Below, in pieces: positions 7,383 through 20,353 of a stretch of 26,904 nucleotides of DNA; the first letter of the stretch is position 1; each line of letters begins with the position of its first letter. The DNA lies in the NCBI GenBank assembly GCA_002421585.1, contig DIKD01000006.1:1-26904 (forward strand). Direction: 5' to 3'. Under the pieces are notes generated by a model that was given only the letters and a program-made list of their open reading frames with translations, searched no databases and was not told the DNA's origin. A program made the position numbers and the translations under genes. Source of the DNA: Dehalococcoidia bacterium UBA5627. Its GTDB lineage: Bacteria > Chloroflexota > Dehalococcoidia > Dehalococcoidales > UBA5627.

Positions 7383-7413
7383 ATAATGCCTTATCATTTT
7401 GATAAGGCATTAT
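7383..7413. terminator. Probable bidirectional intrinsic terminator between convergent genes
   Basis: Perfect 14-bp inverted repeat ATAATGCCTTATCA-ttt-TGATAAGGCATTAT with short T-rich tails on both strands. Confidence 0.75.
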
Positions 7414-18623: not shown

Positions 18624-19100
18624 CTACGGCCTGATATATGTTCCGCTTTTACCGCCGCTTTTCTTTTGCAGGCAAATACTTTCAATTGACATACCGCGGT
18701 CTATAGCTTTACACATATCATAAATAGTTAGAGCGCTTACGGCAGCGGCAGTCATTGCTTCCATTTCAACTCCGGTTTTTCCGGTGCTTTTCGCCATGGT
18801 TTTTATCTCGATGTAATCATTACCGATAAATTCAAAGTCAACAGCGATTTCGCTTACCAGTATAGTATGGCATAGAGGGATTAAATCAGGGGTTTTCTTT
18901 GCTCCCATAATACCGGCTATTCTGGCTGCTGCCAGAACATCGCCCTTTTTCATCTGGTTTTGCTTTATTTTTTCCAGCGTTTCGGGTTTCATTCTTACAC
19001 CGCCGGTAACAACAGCTTCACGAACAGTATCATCTTTGGGTGAAACATCGACCATTTTAGCTTCGCCCTTTTTATTTATATGGGTCAGTTCTTCAGTCAT
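18624..19100 (-). CDS. moaC: Cyclic pyranopterin monophosphate synthase
   Basis: LTHINKKGEAKMVDVS, KKGDVL, AKKTPDLIPLCH, TGVEMEAM, YDMCKA, KSGGKSG. Start moved to ATG 19100 behind GGAG/AGGA (ORF track gives 19133). Confidence 0.96.
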   Translation of the reverse strand: MTEELTHINKKGEAKMVDVSPKDDTVREAVVTGGVRMKPETLEKIKQNQMKKGDVLAAARIAGIMGAKKTPDLIPLCHTILVSEIAVDFEFIGNDYIEIKTMAKSTGKTGVEMEAMTAAAVSALTIYDMCKAIDRGMSIESICLQKKSGGKSGTYIRP

Positions 19101-19122
19101 AATCCTACTCCGATAAATATTA

Positions 19123-20106
19123 TTACCCGCCAATTTGCCACATTTGTCTCTTTTTCAAATCCATTTCGTCTGATTCAGGATGCTTTTCCTGTTTAATAGT
19201 TACCGCTTTTTTTATAACTTCCTCTAATTCTTCTATACCGGCACCTGCCCTCAATGGCCCTTTAATATCAATCTCGTCATCGCGGAGAAGACAGGGCATC
19301 AGACGGCCGTCGGCAGTAAGCCTAAATCTGTTACATTCGGAACAAAAGTTGTGACTCATAGCTCCTATAAATCCGACTGTGCCTTTTGAATTATCTAATT
19401 TATAATATTTTGCCGGTCCGTTTCCTGATGCAACGCCACAAGGTTCCAAATTTCCCAGACTATTTACAATCATATTTTTTATCTCATCGATTGCTATCAT
19501 CTTCTTCTTGTCTTCCGAGGAATCGGCAAAGGGCATGTATTCGATATAACGCACATTCCATCCGTTAGTGACGCTCTTTTTGGCAAAATCGATTATCTCA
19601 TCATCGTTGATGCCCTTAATAGGTACCATATTTATCTTTACCGGGTCCAAGCCTGCCTCAATTGCGGAATCAATACCTATCAGCACATCATCCAGATTAC
19701 CGCCGCCTGTAATATATTTGAACTTATCGGAATTAAAACTATCGAGACTGATGTTTACCCTGTTTAACCCAGCCTCAATTAGCTCATCGAGATATTTTTT
19801 CAAAAATACGCCGTTAGTTGTCAGGGATATGTCATTTATCCCTTCAATCAGATATAGAAGTTCTATCAATGCGCCGACATCCGGTCTGACCAGGGGTTCC
19901 CCACCGGTGATACGAAGGTTCTTAACACCCAGCCTGGCAGCCGCCTTCACAATTTTTTGAATTTCTTTATATCTTAATATATCGTCGTGATTTAAATGCG
20001 GCGCGAGGTGTGAATTGCAGTATATGCATCTCATATTGCAACGGTCGGTAATAGAAATACGCATATAATTGATATTACGATGATAAGCATCAAAAAGAGT
20101 TGTCAT
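19123..20106 (-). CDS. moaA: GTP 3',8-cyclase (radical SAM)
   Basis: RISITDRCNMRCIYC, LRITGGEP, NISLDS, FCSECNRFRLTADG..PCL, C-terminal MWQIGG. SD GGAGG. Confidence 0.97.
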   Translation of the reverse strand: MTTLFDAYHRNINYMRISITDRCNMRCIYCNSHLAPHLNHDDILRYKEIQKIVKAAARLGVKNLRITGGEPLVRPDVGALIELLYLIEGINDISLTTNGVFLKKYLDELIEAGLNRVNISLDSFNSDKFKYITGGGNLDDVLIGIDSAIEAGLDPVKINMVPIKGINDDEIIDFAKKSVTNGWNVRYIEYMPFADSSEDKKKMIAIDEIKNMIVNSLGNLEPCGVASGNGPAKYYKLDNSKGTVGFIGAMSHNFCSECNRFRLTADGRLMPCLLRDDEIDIKGPLRAGAGIEELEEVIKKAVTIKQEKHPESDEMDLKKRQMWQIGG

Positions 20107-20210
20107 GACGCCTCCGGCTTATTTTGATATTGATTGTTATTTTGCCTTACAAATGCTACTTAAATAAATACATCCCAAAGGAGGCATAATAAATCAACAA
20201 AAAATATTAT

Positions 20211-20312
20211 CCCCCCTTTCCAGACGCGGGCGGTATATAAGTTTCCCATATACCTTAACCGGCGGTAATCCATAAGCGTAAAGCTCTTAGGCACTTACAA
20301 CTCGAAGGGTTT
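20211..20312 (-). promoter_or_regulatory. Moco/tungsten-cofactor riboswitch (Moco RNA motif), P3-less variant, upstream of moaA-moaC
   Basis: The minus strand reads CCCUUCGAG, then the 11-nt tetraloop receptor CCUAAG/UAUGG (20291-20286, 20274-20270), a GAAA-capped hairpin GGUAUAU-GG-GAAA-CUU-AUAUACC, and the 3' CCCGCGUCUGGAAAGG motif. It sits in the moaA leader. Confidence 0.85.
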
Positions 20313-20353
20313 AGTTATTAATATCTTTTTAAGATTACCGAATACTTGTGTTT

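Follow-up and report, generated by a model that had tools for sequence, protein, structure and literature searches.

How does a Moco RNA control moaA when its aptamer ends far upstream of the start codon? In the E. coli moaABCDE riboswitch the Shine-Dalgarno (SD) sequence is inside P1. The element in the window (the whole stretch of 26,904 nt that was analysed) is of the same aptamer family, is linked to the same pathway and has GGAAAGG as part of P1, but here about 105 nt separate GGAAAGG from the AUG, a different sequence is the SD, and a separate expression platform is found downstream. The original prediction was that a strand released from the aptamer tail by cofactor binding pairs with the distant SD and start codon and shuts off translation. 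Its letters, coordinates and pair counts were all correct on re-check. Comparison of related leaders leads us to a different mechanism, to which we give a probability of about 0.7: a Moco/Tuco-class riboswitch that lacks P3 and has an expression platform of the classical terminator/antiterminator type.

The moaA-moaC locus and its aptamer

The regulated unit (18624 to 20106, minus strand, as are all leader features below) consists of moaA (20106-19123, ATG at 20106-20104) and moaC (19133-18624) directly downstream, with moeA convergent and a DegV gene divergent to them. The source is a Dehalococcoidales MAG (genome 1.23 Mb, 81% complete). A promoter-like site is located at 20382-20354 (TTGACT, 17 nt spacer, TATATT); the equivalent site in the congener G007 scores 11/12. 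The moaA SD GGAGG (20115-20111) and the start codon together read GGAGGCGUCAUG (20115-20104) and form the 3' side of the distant pairing, called helix B below. An AU-rich spacer (20161-20116) separates the SD from the terminator described in the next section. It is poorly conserved, and conservation of the leaders collapses after about column 165 of alignment A1. A snoRNA match at 20068-20134 was rejected as spurious (23.5 bits vs 45).

The covariance model RF01055 (Moco/Tuco RNA motif, model positions 1-135) matches 20319-20197, and its 48.2 bits exceed the gathering score of 36. The model positions of P3 are deleted in the Rfam alignment, as in the P3-less, putatively Tuco-sensing subgroup. 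The hallmarks CCUAAG...UAUGG, GGGAAAC and UGGAAAGG are present in the cmscan alignment, and so are the P4 GAAA tetraloop, the P2 receptor bulge and the conserved junction GGAAAGG; position 20223 is C where the aptamer core has a conserved U. Closure of P1 by the aptamer tail with a 5' CCCUU had been proposed, and in the Rfam alignment CCCUUC (20309-20304) is indeed the P1 5' strand, with GGGGGG (20216-20211) as its 3' strand. The Moco/Tuco biosynthesis genes moaA and moaC lie downstream, the genomic position expected of this motif. Judged by its sequence, the element upstream of moaA-moaC is a real P3-less Moco RNA, and Moco/Tuco binding is predicted.

The switch strand as probable antiterminator and terminator arm

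The aptamer tail AAAGGGGGGAUAAUA (20219-20205) pairs across the loop UUUUUUGUUGAUU (20204-20192) with the switch strand UAUUAUGCCUCCUUU (20191-20177), and we refer to this pairing as helix A. The 14 of 15 pairs claimed for it, one of them a G-U (G20214-U20182), were confirmed, with a G.G mismatch at 20211/20185. The fold (-16.6 kcal/mol, z -4.6) is beyond chance, none of 200 shuffles being as good. For comparison we took the orthologous moaA leaders from the ten further genomes in the genus in which this P3-less aptamer occurs. Helix A is 90.7% paired across these 10 congeners. In the window the 5' arm is extended outwards (20227-20205 in total): GCGUCU (20227-20222) pairs with GGAUGU (20175-20170). 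This outer helix is created by the changes at 20223 and 20172 together and is found in the window only. The extended hairpin folds at -24.5 kcal/mol (z -6.4) in the window and at -12.6 to -18.5 kcal/mol in the congeners. Whole-leader minimum free energy (MFE) folds did not recover the aptamer. They placed 20203-20181 in an AU-rich helix with the spacer; its AGGCA reads AGACA in G011 and G001, and we rejected this helix as not conserved.

The nearest partner of the switch strand, overlooked in the original list of its partners, is the adjacent stretch 20175-20168. Nine of the 10 congeners share the long leader; the leader of G010 is short and has no platform. Eight of these nine (8 of 10 congeneric leaders) read (A/G)CCUCC, a tetraloop (UUCG, UUUG, UGCG or UCCG), GGAGGUAU and then, directly, UUUGUUU. 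The resulting hairpin of 8 bp has -12.0 to -12.9 kcal/mol in 8 of 10 leaders, is called by a terminator scan in locus L043 (334-353) and in alignment A1 is paired to 97.5%. All 10 aligned leaders keep the U tract (UUAUUU, 20167-20162, in the window), and the following ~50 nt are not conserved. The stem is imperfect in G005/L033 (-6.9 kcal/mol) and in L055 (-6.5 kcal/mol) as well as in the window, which counts against a terminator. Two-sided stem changes in the terminator stem were absent within the genus (alignment A1), also a point against it, so the covariation seen for the terminator is confined to non-orthologous loci of the order. These were sampled as 28 further Moco loci, from 27 other genomes (one genome per family) and from the second copy in this genome, L001. 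The tail GGAAAGGAG, CACCUCC, a loop, GGAGGUG and then 5 or more U among 8 positions occur in this order in at least 16 of the 28. At stem positions -7, -6 and -5 both partners vary among them (G-C/A-U, C-G/U-A and A-U/G-C). Other sampled loci, including L001, have the SD inside P1 in the E. coli manner. The hairpin plus U tract of the congeners is best read as an intrinsic terminator. Since the strands hardly vary in the genus, own-versus-swapped duplex tests cannot support either helix A or the terminator there.

The left arm of the terminator in the relatives is the switch strand itself (20187-20180 in the window), which makes helix A a candidate antiterminator: it is an alternative helix that joins the P1 3' strand to the terminator 5' arm. 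In the termination and ligand response that we infer, the P1 3' strand and the tail (20219-20205) would pair with 20191-20177 in the absence of cofactor, and RNA polymerase would continue into moaA-moaC. With cofactor bound, P1 (20309-20304 with 20216-20211) would retain the tail, 20187-20180 would pair with the adjacent 20175-20168 ahead of the U-rich tract, and transcription would end ~55 nt before the SD. The earlier view of helix A as the ligand-free ON structure holds, the tail being able to close P1 or to pair with 20191-20177. Release of the switch strand onto the SD and AUG as the OFF state is probably wrong, since the relatives pair this strand with the adjacent GGAGGUAU; the comparative evidence points to termination, an outcome that the original prediction had named as one that would speak against it. 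In the eight intact congeners, folds of the transcript up to the U tract put only -1.1 to +3.2 kcal/mol between helix A and P1 plus terminator, as close as a switch requires, and ligand binding could plausibly tip the balance.

Intrinsic-terminator expression platforms have been described for the Moco RNA motif (Regulski et al. 2008, PMC2408646), so the claim of an architecture new to this class fails. The same founding paper reported both platform types, terminator and SD-in-P1, sometimes in one organism; this genome likewise has an SD-in-P1 copy. The window element resembles the terminator-type Moco RNAs of that study in aptamer class (here the P3-less subgroup), in the Moco-biosynthesis genes downstream and in a stem-loop, weak in this copy, before a U tract. 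It differs from them in a C.U mismatch in the stem, in uncompensated private changes of the aptamer and in an SD ~55 nt past the terminator.

In the window, the 3' arm of the terminator is GGAUGUAU (20175-20168, beginning with GGAUGU) in place of the congeners' sequence, the loop is UUUG (20179-20176), and U20172 faces C20183 as the C.U mismatch. The hairpin has only -5.4 kcal/mol (z -1.7, equalled by 16 of 200 shuffles), and the terminator scan made no call at 20187-20168. In favour of termination, hairpin-plus-U sites number 24 in the window, against 16.9 +/- 3.6 in shuffles. The weakness of the window's own copy argues against the terminator reading; the mismatch at U20172 is the reason why the first analysis missed the terminator and the scan gave no call. 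What had looked like an attractive translational relay is probably an ordinary antiterminator/terminator switch masked by a single substitution. A single copy can mislead, and the congeners settle the reading.

U20172 appears genuine: over 20108-20350 the window has an identical counterpart in an independent Logan contig from the likely source run, and position 20172 is G in a co-occurring relative and in contigs of three other runs. The likely source sample contains two related strains at this locus: contig depth is ~17 for the window type and ~45 for a G011-like type, and 13 of 140 bases differ. A pattern scan of metagenome contigs matched copies of G001, G008 and G005 only.

Four window positions carry private changes at columns that are otherwise invariant: 20305 (a P1 G-C turned into G-U), 20264 (a P2 pair broken), 20223 (the core C mentioned above) and 20172 (the terminator stem broken). 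All four are uncompensated and favour the ON state, towards helix A. The energy difference between the two forms is +6.1 kcal/mol in the window and +11.6 kcal/mol in G005. The sole unusual feature of the window copy is this lineage-specific weakening of the OFF state; with the balance shifted to helix A by the four substitutions, the copy is probably leaky, retuned or decaying.

Alternative explanations

The same substitutions could mean that the window element is a relic in decay, has lost its switching and leaves moaA constitutive. We regard this as unlikely, if deserving of attention. All four changes are weakening ones that fall in P1, in P2, in the loop of the conserved core or in the terminator, the aptamer has the lowest Rfam score among the moaA-leader aptamers of the genus, and the extended helix A is more stable than in any congener. 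Loss also recurs nearby, in the form of a leader without an Rfam match (L054), the G010 leader without a platform and sister lineages without a moaA riboswitch. The aptamer nevertheless remains 12 bits above the gathering score and all helices are still able to form, and the number of private changes is ordinary (G008 has 9 and G005 has 6). Weakening here and riboswitch loss in neighbouring lineages make up a small natural series for riboswitch retuning or loss in reduced Dehalococcoidales genomes.

It is rather doubtful that the distant pairing of the original prediction operates, alone or as a second layer, with P1 holding the tail and 20191-20180 covering the SD and AUG (20115-20104) in read-through transcripts so that translation is blocked. 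With the terminator crippled in the window lineage, SD pairing could then be the main OFF route. The E. coli thiM TPP type is a translational anti-SD/anti-anti-SD platform. The window is like it in its three-strand logic, an aptamer strand competing for a CCUCC-type strand that is able to cover the SD. It is unlike it in having a terminator arm in between, and in an SD complementarity no better than that of many other genes. The 11 of 12 pairs claimed for helix B are real (two G-U, one C.U mismatch), but any CCUCC can pair with any GGAGG, and for a CCUCC strand facing an SD the match is not beyond chance: the duplex has -15.1 kcal/mol, the 163 start regions with a GGAGG SD in this genome average -12.8 +/- 2.0 kcal/mol, and 13.5% of them pair with the switch strand at least as well.

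Comparison within the genus gives helix B some support. It is 90.9% paired in the 10 congeners, and one pair is two-sided (GC in 6, AU in 2 and unpaired in 2; columns 141/222 of alignment A1), with a third A-U in L055. This one weakly covarying pair is all that the covariation search yielded for helix B, and its score is matched by 18 of 500 shuffles, a frequency inside the false-positive range that the tool itself quotes. The A-U cases may also represent a single event: the moaA tree (330 nt) has no clear branching, so independent events cannot be counted. In the genus, the strand pairs better with its own SD region than with swapped ones (-13.3 vs -12.5 kcal/mol; 1023 of 20000 permutations as good), but in the 16 terminator-bearing leaders of the order, for which start calls are crude, the arm shows no specificity for its own SD (-9.2 vs -9.3 kcal/mol). 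Translation alone is reason enough for the SD, the AUG and their spacing to be conserved.

Constrained folds, also proposed at the outset, favour the distant pairing and stand against the terminator reading. With the tail blocked, equilibrium folds of the window place the strand on the SD with a probability of 0.59, against 0.01 for the weak terminator, and the unpaired SD falls from 0.56 to 0.13; helix B is also favoured with the tail blocked in L033, L036, L042 and L043. The local terminator hairpin, however, forms ~60 nt before the SD is synthesised. By these folds helix B is thermodynamically possible in read-through RNA; that it acts there as a second layer seems quite doubtful, and the distant SD pairing is probably generic and incidental. 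A version for the whole genus, in which the CCUCC arm of the terminator would double as a long-range anti-SD, is improbable. Termination would come first and occlusion of the moaA SD and AUG would follow in read-through transcripts, helix B being the main OFF route in lineages with a crippled terminator (window, G005, L055). If functional, distal SD pairing would add a modest case of dual control to a class with little-tested mechanisms.

Control by a small leader ORF (SD-like GGGGGG, start UUG at 20201-20199, 14 residues, LLIYYASFGMYLFK) was rejected as highly improbable: an ORF in the same frame follows the G run by 10-13 nt in the window, G011, G008, G001, G002 and G007, but the start codon is absent there in G005, G004, G009 and G010, G006 is frameshifted with its RNA helices retained, and the similarity of the peptides is due to the conserved helix strands.

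Related loci

The terminator/antiterminator platform preferred here for the moaA leader is not the only arrangement in this genome. The second Moco RNA (L001:1280-1660; G000 contig C58:2793-2925, minus strand; 57.8 bits) has P3. The AUG of a hydrophobic ORF of 37 codons comes 5 nt after the GGAAAAGGAGG of this RNA, and behind that ORF lies a gene for a 262-aa SBP_bac_11 (ModA/TupA-like) binding protein. L001 is an E. coli-type SD-in-P1 platform before a tiny ORF. In G010 (L039:199-362; aptamer 49.8 bits) only ~27 nt separate the G run from the moaA SD, and the leader contains neither the CCUCC strand nor the terminator, so that it has no recognisable expression platform.

Twelve MoaA homologues were looked up, which gave two new leaders (L054 and L055), eight loci without a riboswitch and two matches without DNA. 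In L054 (400-715), from a relative of G005, the leader before an intact moaA is homologous to the riboswitch and carries numerous changes in the core (UUGAAAGAGGGG, CCGGAC). RF01055 does not match it at E <= 0.01, and it has the look of a riboswitch relic. The Moco aptamer is absent from the eight moaA loci L056-L063 (60-75% protein identity). These sister lineages keep the gene order DegV / moaA-moaC / moeA and share, immediately before the SD, a conserved AUCUAUGGUAGAAU that may be the -10 region of a promoter. Elsewhere in the window, at 7383-7413, a 14-bp palindromic hairpin without mismatches lies between convergent genes; with U tracts on either strand, it looks like a bidirectional terminator.
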